The notes under the pieces were generated by a model, which made no database searches, was not told where the DNA came from, and saw only the letters and a list, made by a program, of their open reading frames with translations. Positions 45,209 to 56,459 of a stretch of 64,000 bases of DNA are shown piece by piece; position 1 is the first letter of the stretch; the number at the start of each line of letters is the position of its first letter. Both the position numbers and the translations under genes were made by a program. This stretch comes from Lophium mytilinum (lineage: Eukaryota), in contig MU004191.1 of the NCBI GenBank assembly GCA_010093605.1, forward strand, positions 1,410,816-1,474,815, written 5' to 3'.

Positions 45209-46507
45209 ATGAGTATCGACATCCACTGGGACACCCTGACGGGCGGTCCTGATGGAGTTGCCCGAGCCGAGACCATTCGAGCTTTCATCCATGAAAGGTT
45301 TCAGCAGGTGACGCTGCCGCGCTTCATCCGCTCCGTCAAAGTCCACTCCTTCGACTTTGGCAGCGTGCCCCCTGAGCTTGAGCTCAAGGACATCTGCGAC
45401 CCGCTCCCGGACTTCTACGAGGAGGATGATGACTATGGGAGCGAGGATGAGGATGCCGCCGACCGCGTTTCAGCCCAGGTCGACAGTATGCATCTCGATA
45501 CCCCCAAGTCCTCCAACGAGCGCCGCTTCAGGGGACTGGACGGACAAGACCTTGATGGCCAAAAGCCGCCCATGCGGTCACATCTTCCGCCGCACGTAGA
45601 CACCAGAGGGCCCGGCTTGCGTTCGATGCTGGCGCCAGGCGATCACCTCGGAAGCCCTCTGATATCCAGAGCATCCACTCCCGGCATCCCAGGCGGCACA
45701 TCCAACATGAGCTACTTCCATCTCCCTCTTGGAGCTGGTATCTCAGGTGCTACTACTCCGCTCGCTGCTGTGGCTGGTGCCCAATATCAGAGCTGGCCGG
45801 ACAGCCATCATTACGGTCGTTTCCTACACGAGCACGGCAACCGCCGGCCCGATGCTACTTCCATCAGTTCTCTCACTCCTCCTCTCTCAACCGCTGATCC
45901 AAGCTCGCGTCCATCGTCACAGCATCACAATGAGCCGATGAGACATGGTCCAAAAGTTGACACTGAAGAGTCCTCATCATCTCACATGCACCCCAAGACC
46001 CCCTCTCCGTCGCCACCACCGCGAATGAGGGAGAAGAGCGTCAACGACATGCAGGTTGTGTCACATGTCAAGTATTCTGGAGACATCAAAATCTCTCTCA
46101 CAGCCGAGATTCTGCTAGATTACCCGATGCCCAGCTTCGTCGGCATACCTTTGAAACTTAATATCACAGGCTTGACTTTTGATGGCGTGGCCATCTTGGC
46201 ATACATCAAGAAGCGGGCGCACTTTTGCTTCCTGTCGCCAGAAGATGCAGATTCACTTGTGGGCGGCGAGTCTTCTCTGGACAGCATGCCCAACGATCCA
46301 CAATCCTCCGATCGCGCAAGCACCCGGCTCCCCAAAATTGGTGGTTTACTTGAGCAAATCAAGGTCGAGAGCGAGATTGGCCAGAAGGAGAATGGCAAAC
46401 AGGTTCTCAAAAATGTCGGGAAGGTGGAAAGGTTTATTCTCGAGCAAGTCAGGCGCATCTTCGAAGACGAGTTCGTCTATCCAAGCTTTTGGACATTTCT
46501 TGTGTAA
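45209..46507 (+). CDS. MDM12: ERMES subunit Mdm12 (SMP domain)
   Basis: [10 protein letters not shown]...[57 protein letters not shown]...[12 protein letters not shown]. Confidence 0.97.
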
Positions 46508-48476: not shown

Positions 48477-51400
48477 ATGCCGTCCCTGCGGCTCCCTTCC
48501 CTCCTTCTCCCGTGTCTCATCTTGCTCGTGCTCTGGGCCCGCCCAACTCATGCGTTTGGCGCTGGTAATATTGCTTCGACCTCCAAGGTCGAGGGCCAGA
48601 ACTGGCGCCATGGAGATATCGAGGACACTCTACTCACTATTCTCATGTCCCGCACCACCGGCAAGAAGTTCAGCAAGATGGATGTGAAGCGCGTCTACTT
48701 TGGGAACTGGCTGCGTACGTATCTAGCTAAGCCAATGACGGGGAAATCAAAACTGACAATGTGGCAGGCGATTACTCCCAAGCCGTGGACGTACGTATCT
48801 AGCTAAGCATATGGTTGGGAGGTCAACACTTACAATATGGCAGGTTGGAACAGTCAAGATGGTCAGCGCGGAGGCTATCCGTATCCTACTCTGGGTTCTA
48901 GGCTTCTTGAGCTTTGGCTATGGCACTAAGGAGTTCGAGGTCACGCGGGATAGGCTTGGTTGCTACCGGTAAGCAATCCAAAGTCTGCGTTTTACAATTG
49001 CTCACACTCTGTAGTCCCGAAGAGCACATCGACAACCCTAAAGACTACGCTGACAACCTCGATGCCCGCCAATATGACCGTCGCCTTCGAGGACCCGTCG
49101 ATGAGCGTCGCGAATTGGCGATTGACCCTCGCACCGGTCTGAAGAACTATATTGCCTCGGAGGATCTGGGCATCACAACCTCAGCAGGGTTGGTTCGTAA
49201 CCTGTTTGGGCGATGCATCGACCTCGGCCGACGATACAACCGCAATGGAAACAAGGCAGATCTGTATGAAGCTCTTAGGCTTCTTGGTACTGGATGTCAT
49301 TGTTTGGAAGGTAAGAAATACCATGCCGGCGTAAGCTGCTAGAACTCTCGCTAATCACCGGCAGATTACTCTGCTCACTCCAACTATACCGAGCTCGCTC
49401 TCATCGAGATGGGCGAACGTAATGTCTTTCCCCATGTTGGCCGTAGGACGCAAGTTCGCGTCCAGGGCGCTCGTGGCCCTGTCTGGCCTATCATCACCGG
49501 TACTTTCGGGGGCGTCGACTTCCTCCACTCCGTATGTGGAGAGTTCTCAGACAAAGCTACTCAATCCGAGATGCAAGAACTCGAAGGAACTATCCAGGAC
49601 TCAAGTCGAAAGGGAGATAAGAGCATCATCAAAGACCTCCTGAGCCAGCTTCCCGATGGCCTATTTGGGGATAAGGATCAAGCCGGCAAAGCCGACGAGC
49701 TCGAGCAGAATGCCCAGTCTGCTCAAATGCAAAACATGACGATCACTCCCAAAGAGCCGGAAGAGTTTACTCAACAGCTGGATGAGATTGTCAAGCAGGT
49801 CTACCCGATCATGGAGTGGCACGACGAAATCATGCAGTCTATTAACGAATTCATCGAGTCGGTTCCCAGTAAGTAGTCGCCTTGACGGCCTTCACGGCCC
49901 CCAAGTTGCAATGCCTCTTCCCTTATGAGCGTTTGCTAATTGCCAATCCCATCTTTAGTCCTTCCTGACCTCATCGAGCAACTGCAGGATCAGATCAACA
50001 TCTTCGTGTTCTCGCTCCTGGCCCCATTCGTCCTTCCGATAATCTCACAGGTGAAGACAGAACTTGAGACCGGCTCGTCTGAAGTCATCGCCTCCTCCCG
50101 CGACAAGCAGCTCATCGTGTTCAACGACGACGAGTCCAGCGACCCGACTCACTCCATGATTTCCAAGGATCACTTCAGCAACGTCCTCAACGAGCCTGCT
50201 GGCAAGGTCGCTTCGCAGGTCCTCAAGTGGGTCGTCCCACAGATTGTGAACTGCTGGGATGACGAGCGTGCCGACGTAAACCGTACTATCCAGCGTATCA
50301 TCACTGGCGTTTTCCACCACCCTGCCCTCCGCCAATACGGCGACGACGGTGCTGCCGAGTGCCGTGGCCTGATGTTCAACGTCGTGGAGAAATGGTGGGG
50401 CGAGATGAGCGAGCGCGAGAAGGATGATTTGCGTGACAAGCTTAGCCGGGACGGCGTCGAGCAGGGCCGGAACCACAAAGAGGGTGTGCACGACAAGGGC
50501 CACGGCTGCGGCAAGCCTCTTGGGATGGCGAATGATTTCTCCGGTTCTGGAGTTGGAGGTGGCCTCGGAGGCGTACTTGGCGGCGTTCTAGGCGGCGGCA
50601 AGTCCTCCTCAGGTGGCTACGGCGGTGGAAACTCCGGCAAGAATGAACCTTTCCACGAAGTCGGCAACTTCGCTAGCGAGGCCGTTGGTGGTGGTGCACT
50701 CGGTGGCATCGTTGGCGGTCTGGTCGGCGGCATTGGTGGATCTCTCTTGAGCGGCGCGATGGGTGGAGGTGGAGGGGACGACGAAGACGAGTACAAGCCT
50801 AAGAAGGACCAGAAGTACAAGGCCGAGTACGATGAGCCATATGGCGGAGGCCACACGACGCAGTACACCGAGACGTCGAACCAAGGCAACCGATACGGCC
50901 AAGCTGAGTACAAGAAGACTGAGTATGAAAGCGGTGGCCGACGCGAGGAATACTCTAGCTACCAGCAGGAAGGCCGATCAGGCCATGCGGGAGGCTATGA
51001 GTCCCGCGTCGAGACGACGGCGACTAGCTATGGTGGAGGTGGAGGGTACGAGGAGAAGCGTAGATCGAAGAACTACGACGAGGGCTCGGAAGATGAAGAG
51101 GAGAAGCGGAGGAAGAAGGAGCGCAAGGCACGTGAGAAGGCAGAGAAGAAGGCCCGGAAGCAACACGGGGGTTATGATAATGACGACGATGAGGACAGTG
51201 AGGACGAGGGCAGGAAGCACAGGGAGAAGGAGCATAAGCGCCGCTCTGGGTCAGGCGAGCGTCGCCGTTCCAGGTCTCGCGAGCGGGAGTCTCGGGGCTA
51301 CGGCCAAGAGCAGAGTTATGGAGGGCAACAGCAGCAGTCCTATGGTGAGCAACGTGAGAGCGGAGGCTATGGCGAGGAGCTTCAATATGGTCAAGAGCGT

Positions 51401-51655
51401 CAGTATGGCCAAGAGCGCCAGGGCTATGGTGGAGGAGATCAGTACGGAGGCGGCCAGTACGGAGGTGGTCAGGAAGGAGGCGGCCAGTATGGAGGCGGCC
51501 AAGAACGAGGCGGCTACCAGCAGGAAGAACGTATGCCAGGCGGCTTTGGTGGAGACGAGTATGGCGAGCAACAAGAGCGACGTCGTGACGACGAGTACGG
51601 CGAGTCTCAGCAGCAGTATGGCGAGCCTCGGCGTGGCTACGGGGGTGGTTACTAG
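48477..51655 (+). CDS. het-c: Het-C family protein with signal peptide and Gly/Gln/Tyr-rich tail
   Basis: AFGAGNI, WRHGDIED, RVYFGNWLRDYSQAVD, LGCYRPEEHIDNPKDYADN, HCLEDYSAHSNY, DPTHSMISKDHF; 5 introns. May be a het-c paralogue rather than the orthologue. Confidence 0.93.
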
Positions 51656-52877: not shown

Positions 52878-55800
52878 ATGGCGCCCTCATACCTACCCGT
52901 GTCGACGCGCGATGTCGACGACACCGCCGCCCGAACCTCCCCTCCGCAACCGCCGAAACATGCGCCAGTAGCCCACATGGCCACCACAACCCTGAAAGTC
53001 GAGGGCATGACCTGCGGCGCGTGTACCTCGGCCATCGAGACTGGATTTAATGGTGTTGACGGCGTTGGAAACGTGTCGATCAGCTTGGTAATGGAACGCG
53101 CCGTCGTGCAGCACGACCCCAGCAAAATATCCGTGGACCAAGTGAAGGAAATAATAGAAGACCGCGGGTTCGATGCCGAGGTTTTGTCCTCGGACATACC
53201 TGCTGCGAACCAAAGTCTTGATGATAACTTTTTGAGCGATTCGGAGGATGAAGAGGAGAGCCAGGGCGCGAAGATGACCATCACCACCGTTTCTGTTGGA
53301 GGTATGACATGCGGCGCTTGTACTTCTGCTGTGGAAAACGGGTTCGCGAATGTTTCTGGTGTACAGCATTTCAGCATATCGTTGCTTTCGGAGCGAGCGG
53401 TCATCGAGCACGACCCGGCCATGATTACCCCGGAGCAGATCGCGGAGATCATCGAGGATACTGGGTTCGATGCGAAGGTCTTGGAAACAAAAGCCTCGGC
53501 GCCTGAGAAGAAAACCCGCCAGAGCCGGAAGCGGAAGACGTTGACTACGACAGTTGCAGTGGAGGGCATGACTTGTGGGGCTTGCACCGCTGCGATTGAG
53601 GGAGGCTTCAAAGGCGTAGACGGAGTTCTTCAGTTCAATATCAGCTTACTCGCCAACCGCGCAGTCATTGTACACGAGGCGGCAAAGCTTTCAGAGGCGC
53701 AGATCGTGGAGATGATCGAGGATAGGGGTTTCGATGCCAAAGTTATCTCGTCTGTGGATGCGAACGCCCAAACCTCGACATCCTCGACAACGTTCCATCT
53801 GAAAGTCTACGGCCTGAAAGATGCAAAGTCTGCGCAGGAGCTAGAGACGAATCTCCGCGCCTTGTCAGGTATCCCAGCAGCCACTGTCAATTTCAGCACT
53901 TCCCGGGCGACAATCACACACGAGCCGCTACGACTGGGCTTGCGTGCCATCGTTGAGTCCATCGAAGCTGTTGGATATAACGCGTTAGTCGCCGATTCGG
54001 ACGACAACAACGCCCAACTCGAATCTCTTGCCAAGACAAAAGAGATCCAGGAGTGGCGGCGAGCCTTTAGGACTTCTCTTATGTTCGCTATACCGGTGTT
54101 TCTGACCAGCATGTTTTTACCTATGTTTCTCCCTATTTTGGATTATGGCAGCATTAAAATCTGCACGGGAGTCTGGCTGGGAGACGTCGTGTGCCTTGTC
54201 CTCACTATTCCTGTTCAATTCGGCATTGGCAAGCGATTCTACGTTTCAGCTTTTAGATCTTTGCGCCACGGCTCGCCCACCATGGATGTCCTGGTTGTTT
54301 TGGGTACATCTGCAGCGTTCTTCTTCAGTGTCGTGGGCATGCTCGTCTCGATACTCATTCCGCCGCACAGCCGACCCACAACGTTGTTCGATACTAGCAC
54401 TATGCTTATTACCTTTATCACACTTGGTAGGTTCCTGGAGAACAGGGCGAAAGGGCAGACTTCTAAGGCTCTCTCACGCTTGATGTCTCTTGCACCATCT
54501 ATGGCCACTATCTACGCGGATCCCATCGCAGCCGCCAAGGCAGCGGAAGGTTGGGACGTCGCGTCGGATGAGAAGAACGGCTCTGAAGGAATGGATGGCA
54601 ACGCTGCCGAGGAGAGAGTCATCGCCACAGAACTTATCGAAGTCGGTGACGTCGTCATCCTCAAGCCTGGCGACAAGATTCCCGCGGATGGAACAGTCAC
54701 TCGTGGAGAAAGCTACATCGATGAAAGCATGGTCACTGGTGAAGCGATGCCAATTCTCAAAAAGAAAGGTGCGCTGCTCATGGCCGGTACTGTCAATGGC
54801 AACGGAAGAGTCGACTTCATTGTTACAAGAGCCGGACGCGATACTCAGCTAAGCCAGATCGTGAAGCTAGTCCAGGAAGCCCAGACAAGCCGTGCTCCCA
54901 TCCAGCGACTGGCCGATATTGTTGCTGGCTATTTTGTTCCCATCATCATCACCCTCGGCCTTGCTACATTTGTCTCCTGGATGGTCCTCAGCCATGTTCT
55001 GCCAAACCCACCCCGAGTCTTCCAGGACCACGCCAGTGGTGGCAAGCTGATGGTTTGCGTTAAGCTCTGTATTGCTGTCATTGTCTTTGCTTGCCCATGC
55101 GCACTTGGCCTCGCAACTCCTACTGCCGTCATGGTCGGTACTGGCGTGGGAGCAGAGCAAGGTATCCTCGTCAAGGGAGGTGCTGCTCTGGAAACTGCTA
55201 CAAAAATCACCCATGTTGTCCTTGATAAGACGGGCACGCTCACTGTTGGAAAGATGAGCGTGTCGAAGGCCGACCTCAAATCCGAATGGGCAAGGGATGC
55301 AAGTAAAGCACGGCTGTGGTGGACCTTGATTGGTCTTGCTGAGATGAGCAGCGAGCATCCGATTGCGAAGGCCATAGTACTCGCCGCGAAAGACCACCTC
55401 AGATTGGGGCCTGAAGGGTCTCTTGACGGGAGTGTTGGCGAGTTCGAAGCAATCATCGGCAAGGGCATCACCGCAACTATCGAAGCTGCGATCTCTCCCG
55501 AAAGAAAACGATACAACGTCCTGATCGGCAACGCGACCTACCTAGAGTCCGAGGGAGTGAGCATGGTTCCGTCACTGGAGGAAGTCCCCATTACTCCTGC
55601 AGGCATTGCGAACCCGCGAAGCAATGGTCCTCAAGCTCGCTCAGCTGGCACCACCACCATCCACACCGCCATCGACAACGTCTACACCGGCTGCCTGTCC
55701 CTCTCCGACACTATTAAGCCTTCCGCCAGAGCCGCCATCCTCGCCCTCACACGCATGGGCATCTCCGCCTCCATCGTCACCGGCGACACCAGCCCCTCCG

Positions 55801-56459
55801 CCCTCGTCGTCGCATCCCAGGTCGGCATCCCACCCGCCAACGTCTACGCCTCGGCCACGCCCTCGGACAAAAAAGACATCATCGCCTCGCTGCAGTCGCG
55901 TGGCCAAGTCGTCGCCATGGTCGGCGACGGCATCAACGACTCGCCCGCGCTCGCCTCAGCCGACATCGGCATCGCCCTCTCCACCGGCACCGACGTCGCC
56001 ATGGAAGCCGCATCCATCGTACTCATGAGCACCACGGACCTGCTCGCCATCCCCGCCTCCCTGCTCCTCTCCCGCTCCATCTTCGCCCGCATCAAGCTCA
56101 ACCTCGCCTGGGCGACGATGTACAACCTCATCGGCCTGCCCTTCGCCATGGGGTTCTTCCTGCCCTGGGGCTTGAGCTTGCACCCCATGGCGGCGGGGTT
56201 CGCGATGGCGTGCAGCTCTGTGAGCGTGGTGCTCAGCTCGCTGCACCTCAAGTTCTGGACCCGCCCGGCGTGGATGCGGGTGAAGTTGCTGGATCCGACG
56301 GCGGAGGTGCCGGAGGCGGAGAAGCAGGCGGAGGGGCGGATGCAGGTGGATGGGGTGGTGAAGCGGGCGAGGGATTGGGTTAGGGAGGCGCTGAGGGCGC
56401 GGAAGAGGGGGAGGGAGGAGGTCGGGTATGTGCCGTTGAGGGATATGGGGGAGTCGTAG
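52878..56459 (+). CDS. CCC2: Cu(I)-transporting P1B ATPase (Ccc2/ATP7-type)
   Basis: Three GMTCGAC HMA domains plus a degenerate fourth; TGE, CPC, DKTGT, SEHP, GDGIND, YN and MxxSS motifs; intronless, 1193 aa. Confidence 0.96.
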   Translation: MAPSYLPVSTRDVDDTAARTSPPQPPKHAPVAHMATTTLKVEGMTCGACTSAIETGFNGVDGVGNVSISLVMERAVVQHDPSKISVDQVKEIIEDRGFDAEVLSSDIPAANQSLDDNFLSDSEDEEESQGAKMTITTVSVGGMTCGACTSAVENGFANVSGVQHFSISLLSERAVIEHDPAMITPEQIAEIIEDTGFDAKVLETKASAPEKKTRQSRKRKTLTTTVAVEGMTCGACTAAIEGGFKGVDGVLQFNISLLANRAVIVHEAAKLSEAQIVEMIEDRGFDAKVISSVDANAQTSTSSTTFHLKVYGLKDAKSAQELETNLRALSGIPAATVNFSTSRATITHEPLRLGLRAIVESIEAVGYNALVADSDDNNAQLESLAKTKEIQEWRRAFRTSLMFAIPVFLTSMFLPMFLPILDYGSIKICTGVWLGDVVCLVLTIPVQFGIGKRFYVSAFRSLRHGSPTMDVLVVLGTSAAFFFSVVGMLVSILIPPHSRPTTLFDTSTMLITFITLGRFLENRAKGQTSKALSRLMSLAPSMATIYADPIAAAKAAEGWDVASDEKNGSEGMDGNAAEERVIATELIEVGDVVILKPGDKIPADGTVTRGESYIDESMVTGEAMPILKKKGALLMAGTVNGNGRVDFIVTRAGRDTQLSQIVKLVQEAQTSRAPIQRLADIVAGYFVPIIITLGLATFVSWMVLSHVLPNPPRVFQDHASGGKLMVCVKLCIAVIVFACPCALGLATPTAVMVGTGVGAEQGILVKGGAALETATKITHVVLDKTGTLTVGKMSVSKADLKSEWARDASKARLWWTLIGLAEMSSEHPIAKAIVLAAKDHLRLGPEGSLDGSVGEFEAIIGKGITATIEAAISPERKRYNVLIGNATYLESEGVSMVPSLEEVPITPAGIANPRSNGPQARSAGTTTIHTAIDNVYTGCLSLSDTIKPSARAAILALTRMGISASIVTGDTSPSALVVASQVGIPPANVYASATPSDKKDIIASLQSRGQVVAMVGDGINDSPALASADIGIALSTGTDVAMEAASIVLMSTTDLLAIPASLLLSRSIFARIKLNLAWATMYNLIGLPFAMGFFLPWGLSLHPMAAGFAMACSSVSVVLSSLHLKFWTRPAWMRVKLLDPTAEVPEAEKQAEGRMQVDGVVKRARDWVREALRARKRGREEVGYVPLRDMGES

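Follow-up and report, generated by a model that had tools for sequence, protein, structure and literature searches.

Two neighboring introns of the het-C gene of Lophium mytilinum, separated by a microexon of only 23 nt, are copies of one another, and both are spliced out of the transcript. Likeness between introns is the evidence on which claims of intron gain by copying usually rely. In het-C, however, the likeness of the twin introns is young and the positions that they occupy look old, and so look-alike introns need not mark a new gain; a copy can mark the replacement of one intron by another instead. We consider it probable that this is what happened here, with one old intron overwritten by a copy of its neighbor and with either intron as the donor.

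The twin introns of het-C

The stretch of DNA that was analyzed (the window) comprises 64,000 nt of L. mytilinum contig MU004191.1 (positions 1,410,816-1,474,815 of the forward strand), and the coordinates given here count within it. In our gene model, het-C lies on the plus strand at 48477-51655 and is interrupted by five introns. Exon 1 (48477..48714) runs from the start codon to the first base of the Arg codon that follows the sequence FGNWL, and it matches the Pfam Het-C domain PF07217 (E 9.9e-31), as the last exon also does. Intron 1 (48715..48767), which is 53 nt long, in phase 1 and bounded by GT..AG, carries a branch-site-like CTGAC near its 3′ end. It is followed by the microexon (48768..48790), which contributes the residues RDYSQAVD, by intron 2 (48791..48843), also 53 nt long and bounded by GT..AG but in phase 0, and by exon 3 (48844..48968). 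Intron 3 (48969..49014; 46 nt) and intron 4 (49311..49364; 54 nt) bear no relation to the twins. Intron 5 (49869..49958; 90 nt) precedes the last exon (49959..51655), which holds the end of the Het-C domain, a tail rich in Gly and charged residues, and the stop codon. Intron 2, exon 3 and intron 5 are placed by the gene model together with the contigs described below.

A preliminary description of this locus, made from the sequence alone, had stated that removing both twins restores a conserved motif of the protein. Splicing out all five introns indeed restores this motif and leaves an open frame of 960 amino acids, whereas the frame ends at 90-123 amino acids if either twin is retained or if the microexon is skipped, which shifts the frame. 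The named homologues of the last exon come from Dothideomycetes. In the tail of the protein (50540-51655), a long Gly-rich stretch is followed by a charged repeat region rich in Gln, Gly and Tyr. Two ordinary-looking genes, each a single long open frame on the plus strand, flank het-C: an SMP-domain gene (45212-46507) with a weak MMM1 hit, which we take to be Mdm12-like, and a heavy-metal P-type ATPase gene with four HMA domains (52878-56459).

Four sequencing runs were compared with the window, all in the form of contigs, which drop rare variants. A single DNA contig from run X1 crosses the whole stretch with no differences, although X1 may be the window's own source and therefore is not independent. 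A contig from run X3, which is RNA by a guess whose sole support is this intron-less contig, likewise has no differences and lacks all five introns, each removed at GT..AG. This contig joins 48714 directly to 48768 and keeps the 23 letters of the microexon (its letters 107-129) between two skips of 53 nt each. Contigs of run X4, which carry a related sequence with exons mostly 95-99% alike, are also joined across both twin junctions, and run X5 has almost no coverage at the twins. The splice junctions, for which an RNA check had been proposed, are therefore borne out by the presumed RNA of X3 and by X4.

Realignment confirmed the resemblance that had first drawn attention to these introns. They are equal in length, identical over their first 18 nt, and matched at 43 of 53 positions without a gap. 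The exonic flanks are not duplicated and the phases differ, as had been noted, and the match reaches just one exon base on each side (C before and G after) before it stops. The shared 18-mer matches twice in the window, where 0.00 matches are expected, and the twins are the sole pair with at least 60% ungapped identity among the window's 424 donor-like sites. Their mutual E value in a genome search is 5.7e-8. Moreover, their global alignment score is 76, compared to a mean of 10.7 and a maximum of 43 for 3163 pairs formed from 82 distinct het-C introns of other fungi.

A repeated intron could also be the product of faulty assembly, or of a segmental tandem duplication of an intron together with an exon. 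We give such explanations almost no credence, even with X1 set aside as a possible source of the window. The two copies have 10 mismatches over 53 sites, their flanks are single, their phases differ, the protein contains no repeated peptide, and both junctions are present in the contigs of X3 and X4.

The preliminary description had further raised the possibility of introner activity and had proposed a search for more copies across the genome. No third copy emerged from this search. In the 43.4-Mb genome, the 18-mer with at most 2 mismatches occurs at the twins and at one additional site (contig C13), which is the level of the controls with their two hits. DNA searches of the genome with the region (161 bases) and with each intron (62 bases in both cases) returned this locus only, and these are word-based searches that decayed copies could escape. 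A scan for the twins among metagenome sequences gave candidate hits in six loci. The twins do not fold better than shuffled sequences (z 0.14 and 0.49), and at 53 nt they are not longer than the other introns of the gene, which measure 46, 54 and 90 nt. None of the 25 longest pairs, out of 42, forms a terminal inverted repeat, and the border repeat at the twins is only 1-2 nt (G/GT), the same as that of other het-C introns at these positions.

By definition, an introner family has at least four members spread over unrelated genes (Gozashti et al., 2022, PMC9860276), and introner-like elements are described as longer than regular introns and stably structured (Collemare, van der Burgt and de Wit, 2013, PMC3609843). 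The twins resemble the elements of both accounts in that their likeness covers the whole intron and ends where the exons begin, and in that the host is a Dothideomycete. Unlike introners, they amount to two copies in the same gene, are short, lack a stable structure and occupy positions that do not look new. It is therefore very unlikely that the twins are relics of an introner-like family whose members entered both sites, or took the place of both introns, and have decayed elsewhere. Word-based searches would indeed miss decayed copies, but the count of two, the single extra 18-mer hit at control level, the three DNA searches that return this locus, the short length, the ordinary folding and the presence of both positions in other lineages leave the proposed introner activity unsupported.

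We also considered transfer from a paralog as a source of one twin. A second Het-C gene in the genome (L006, on contig C8) is 73% identical over exon 1 and has no intron before reference codon 143. This candidate explanation is rejected because the paralog has neither twin intron.

Intron positions in other fungi and the age of the copy

Introns in other fungi were detected from gene calls on unspliced contigs, in which an open reading frame either breaks or reads through at a given position. Among the best 120 of 708 exon-1 open reading frames, 13 break at the position of intron 1 (position 1), and 17 remain open there but break at that of intron 2 (position 2). Another 71, transcripts included, read through both positions, 14 have their break at a different place or are ambiguous, and 5 are without the motif. 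We also examined 80 metagenome loci, 57 of which have at least one intron called; in the one metagenome scan, identity to the window is at most 87%. Position 2 is filled in five of these loci (L007, L015, L032, L038 and L060), and position 1, seen as DNA, is filled in L032 only.

In locus L032, both twin positions are occupied, at the same base and in the same phase, by introns that are 62 and 64 nt long and resemble neither each other nor the twins. The position of intron 3 is also common to the window, L032, L007 and L038, and that of intron 4 is common to the window, L007 and L038. Two sequences from Pleosporales-side lineages (P0256 and P0260) have an open reading frame that passes through intron 1 and the microexon into intron 2, such that both introns are read from peptides and not from DNA. 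Among public annotations, P0006 (Lophiotrema), P0104 and P0070 have extra residues in this region, most likely from mis-called introns around the microexon; in the annotated Lophiotrema protein the extra residues stand at position 1, as from a mis-called intron. A search for read-through into exon 3 found, in 42 of 42 candidates, no peptide like the translated twin sequence upstream of this exon.

Intron 2 is present and intron 1 absent in the Cenococcum-like loci L007 and L038. The same is true of L015, which is nested in Pleosporales, and single losses of intron 1 therefore do occur. The position-2 intron of L015 measures 129 nt, about twice the length of those in the other four loci, and may contain an insertion. 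L032, L007 and run X4 all have CGT as the Arg codon at position 1, and thus both ancestral junctions were probably C^GT..AG^GT.

Carriers of an intron at position 2 are located near Diplodia, Verruconis, Rhizodiscina and Cenococcum as well as inside Pleosporales, and this spread over Dothideomycete lineages indicates that position 2 is old. Carriers of an intron at position 1 are spread through Pleosporales, to which the window is added. Intron 1 is absent from the Cenococcum-like loci, which group with Cenococcum geophilum, and from all outgroup-side sequences examined. In our largest tree, in which four rows join an exon 1 to a last exon on the inference that contigs of equal length belong together, the protein encoded in the window branches as the sister of Pleosporales (ultrafast bootstrap 90), and by this placement position 1 would have been gained once. 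With a support of 0.28, a smaller tree groups this protein with the Cenococcum clade. An approximately unbiased (AU) test rejects neither placement, with p-AU values of 0.25 for Pleosporales and 0.75 for Cenococcum plus Lepidopterella, and is a rough test based on fast trees and 2000 replicates, a number flagged as too few. The history of position 1 may accordingly consist of one gain, of one gain and one loss, or of two gains. Sequences P0178 and P0179 were at one point placed near Delitschia from exon 1 alone, and this has been superseded by their grouping with Rhizodiscina (support 94). The preliminary description had suggested that an intron was gained recently and that intron positions in relatives be compared. 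Since this comparison reveals both positions in other fungi, recent gain is ruled out for position 2 and is doubtful for position 1.

The distance between the twins gives a measure of when the copy was made. Their Jukes-Cantor (JC) distance is 0.22, rising to 0.27 when the splice motifs are left out. By comparison, the distance from the window at four-fold sites is 1.37 for L007, 1.49 for L038, 1.77 for L015 and 2.28 for L032, the last from 49 sites only. On the assumption that the rate of change in short introns is close to that of four-fold sites, the copying is much younger than the splits between lineages that share the positions. The twins are no more like their orthologous introns than shuffled sequences are (p 0.21-0.97), and thus no trace of the donor survives. 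By eye, intron 2 resembles intron 2 of the Cenococcum-like loci, but this pairing ranks fourth of 82 by global score (p 0.44 against shuffles), and the resemblance was rejected as evidence on the direction of copying.

The 10 differences between the twins all fall after base 18, and with the differences placed at random, at least 18 consecutive matching bases would arise with p = 0.053. Another, partial round of conversion or selection may account for the flawless first 18 nt, but at this p value we draw no inference. One could extend this argument and propose that selection maintains the likeness as a whole, through a common element on which inclusion of the 23-nt microexon depends, whether or not partial conversion has also recurred. 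The clustering of the differences is what this proposal has in its favor. However, two dissimilar introns flank this microexon in L032, selection on a motif leaves the equal length and the gap-free identity throughout unexplained, and the 129-nt region of both introns plus microexon folds no better than shuffles (z 0.68). We therefore regard maintenance by selection as highly improbable.

Probable replacement of an old intron and its possible route

The preliminary description offered two readings of the twins, intron gain by local copying and conversion between two neighboring introns. The copying part of the first reading stands, as one twin copies the other, whereas recent gain is not supported, given that the positions are shared with other fungi. 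The second reading is the one that we now favor: both positions were probably inherited, and a copy of one intron overwrote the other. Both positions are filled in L032, the likeness of the twins is young, and position 1 appears to have been inherited rather than regained. Outside the window, unrelated sequences occupy both positions (as DNA in L032 and as peptides in P0256 and P0260), and the window's het-C gene retains other inherited positions (introns 2, 3 and 4). Replacement is also favored because one gain and at most one loss explain the pattern at position 1.

Among the observations that count against this reading are that L007 and L038 lack intron 1, that neither tree placement is rejected by the AU test, and that position 1 was seen as DNA in just 1 of 80 loci. 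The first two, along with the absence of intron 1 from the outgroup-side sequences examined, are equally points in favor of a parallel gain. By this account, position 1 was empty in this lineage, either because it had never been gained or because it had been lost, and a copy of the old intron 2 would have landed 23 nt farther upstream, at a C^GT that was filled independently in Pleosporales. The event would then be an ordinary non-segmental duplication within one gene that by coincidence struck a shared site. Only 2-4 C^GT sites exist within 100 nt of junction 2, and the region is rich in intron positions, with eight in codons 53-62, so that a parallel gain with a bias for certain sites is not far-fetched. 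Parallel gains have also been reported in Dothideomycetes (PMC4457414, in the part of the text available). However, the copy would have to land on the exact base and in the exact phase used across Pleosporales. One gain with no more than one loss yields the same pattern, a single loss of intron 1 is seen in L015, and the gene keeps its other inherited positions. Parallel gain, the most serious rival of replacement, is possible but, in our judgment, rather unlikely.

If replacement is correct, then the ancestral gene would have carried two ordinary old spliceosomal introns around the 23-nt microexon, and one of them would later have given way over its full length to a copy of the other while the exons remained untouched. 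The route would probably have been a template switch at the DNA level that exploited microhomology between splice sites, either as a double switch during replication or in the course of break repair. The microhomology would be provided by signals that even unrelated neighboring introns have in common, which on the donor side are C^GT and the donor motif and on the acceptor side the branch site and CAG^GT, separated from their counterparts by a fixed offset of 76 nt. A nascent or broken strand could slip by 76 nt at the donor motif, copy the neighbor, and slip back at the acceptor. Copy tracts that entered the exons would presumably be purged by selection on the nearly invariant peptide. This slip-and-return route derives from microhomology-mediated repair as it is generally known.

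The replacement might alternatively have proceeded through RNA, by reverse splicing into an existing junction, with the same product. We lean toward the DNA route because an RNA route within the same molecule requires a cDNA conversion tract that ends inside the 23-nt microexon, as otherwise intron 2 would be lost; in Zymoseptoria, such tracts cover about 100 nt to either side (PMC5647799).

Relation to described intron duplications

Near-identical introns within one gene have been described as same-gene duplications (SGD). In the survey by Collemare, van der Burgt and de Wit (2013, PMC3609843), as far as its available text goes, SGD introns account for 82 of 1610 multi-copy introns in 24 fungi, and half of these are non-segmental. 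The twins have the characteristics of the non-segmental group, as they are near-identical, reside in one gene, have ordinary length and folding energy, and are bordered by flanks that are not duplicated. The het-C pair thus belongs to a described but uncommon class, with the probable added twist of a young sequence at old positions. The survey explains non-segmental SGD by transposition within a transcript or by transfer between paralogs, and the term 'gene conversion' occurs nowhere in it. Unlike SGD as explained there, the two het-C positions recur in other lineages, and neither intron is present in the paralog, which points to replacement. In Table 2 of the same survey, as available, just one SGD is at a position that represents a single gain, across five species, which fits replacement and is no demonstration of it.

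Replacement at occupied positions has been proposed before. According to the available portion of Yenerall and Zhou (2012, PMC3443670, citing Torriani et al., 2011), no more than 11-24% of a set of 95 introns related in sequence may be novel, and a different intron may have transposed by reverse splicing into a position that was already intronic. The Mycosphaerella/Zymoseptoria case, by the account in the accessible part of PMC3514964, concerns introns of unrelated genes. In contrast to the transposition proposed in PMC3443670, the donor and recipient in het-C are 23 nt apart, no further copies came to light, and we consider a DNA route no less likely than reverse splicing.

A parallel for the turnover of sequence at a fixed position exists in Zymoseptoria tritici, for which the available text of Wu et al. 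(2017, PMC5647799) reports allelic exchange of introns at fixed loci, with narrow tracts of about 100 nt on each side. As in het-C, the sequence turns over in a conversion-like manner while the position stays. In that species, however, the exchange is between alleles of one locus with homologous exons, whereas the het-C exchange would involve two positions without exon homology. In the literature judged from titles and the openings of abstracts, with most subscription papers lying outside this scope, we found no case of replacement between neighboring introns of one gene.

We tentatively put forward the possibility that neighboring spliceosomal introns can overwrite each other whole by way of microhomology between their splice signals alone, with no exon homology and at fixed positions. 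If this is general, then a good part of the catalogued non-segmental SGDs, and some gains that were called from similarity, would be replacements, and such cases should cluster at short exons. The twins represent one event only, and nothing indicates that it affected the Het-C protein.

Other features of this part of the gene deserve mention. Codons 53-62 contain eight intron positions among the 80 loci (53.1, 56.1, 59.0, 60.0, 61.0, 61.2, 62.0 and 62.2), and this concentration within about 30 nt that encode a nearly invariant peptide, across loci L007-L086, has the appearance of a hot spot of intron gain or sliding. In a distant Het-C group (L081, L082, L084, L085 and L086), two introns surround a microexon of 8 nt at codons 60-62. 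The paired introns share short blocks, with local scores in L081 and L085 of 20-24, which fall within the background maximum of 32, and possibly preserve a much older copy event.
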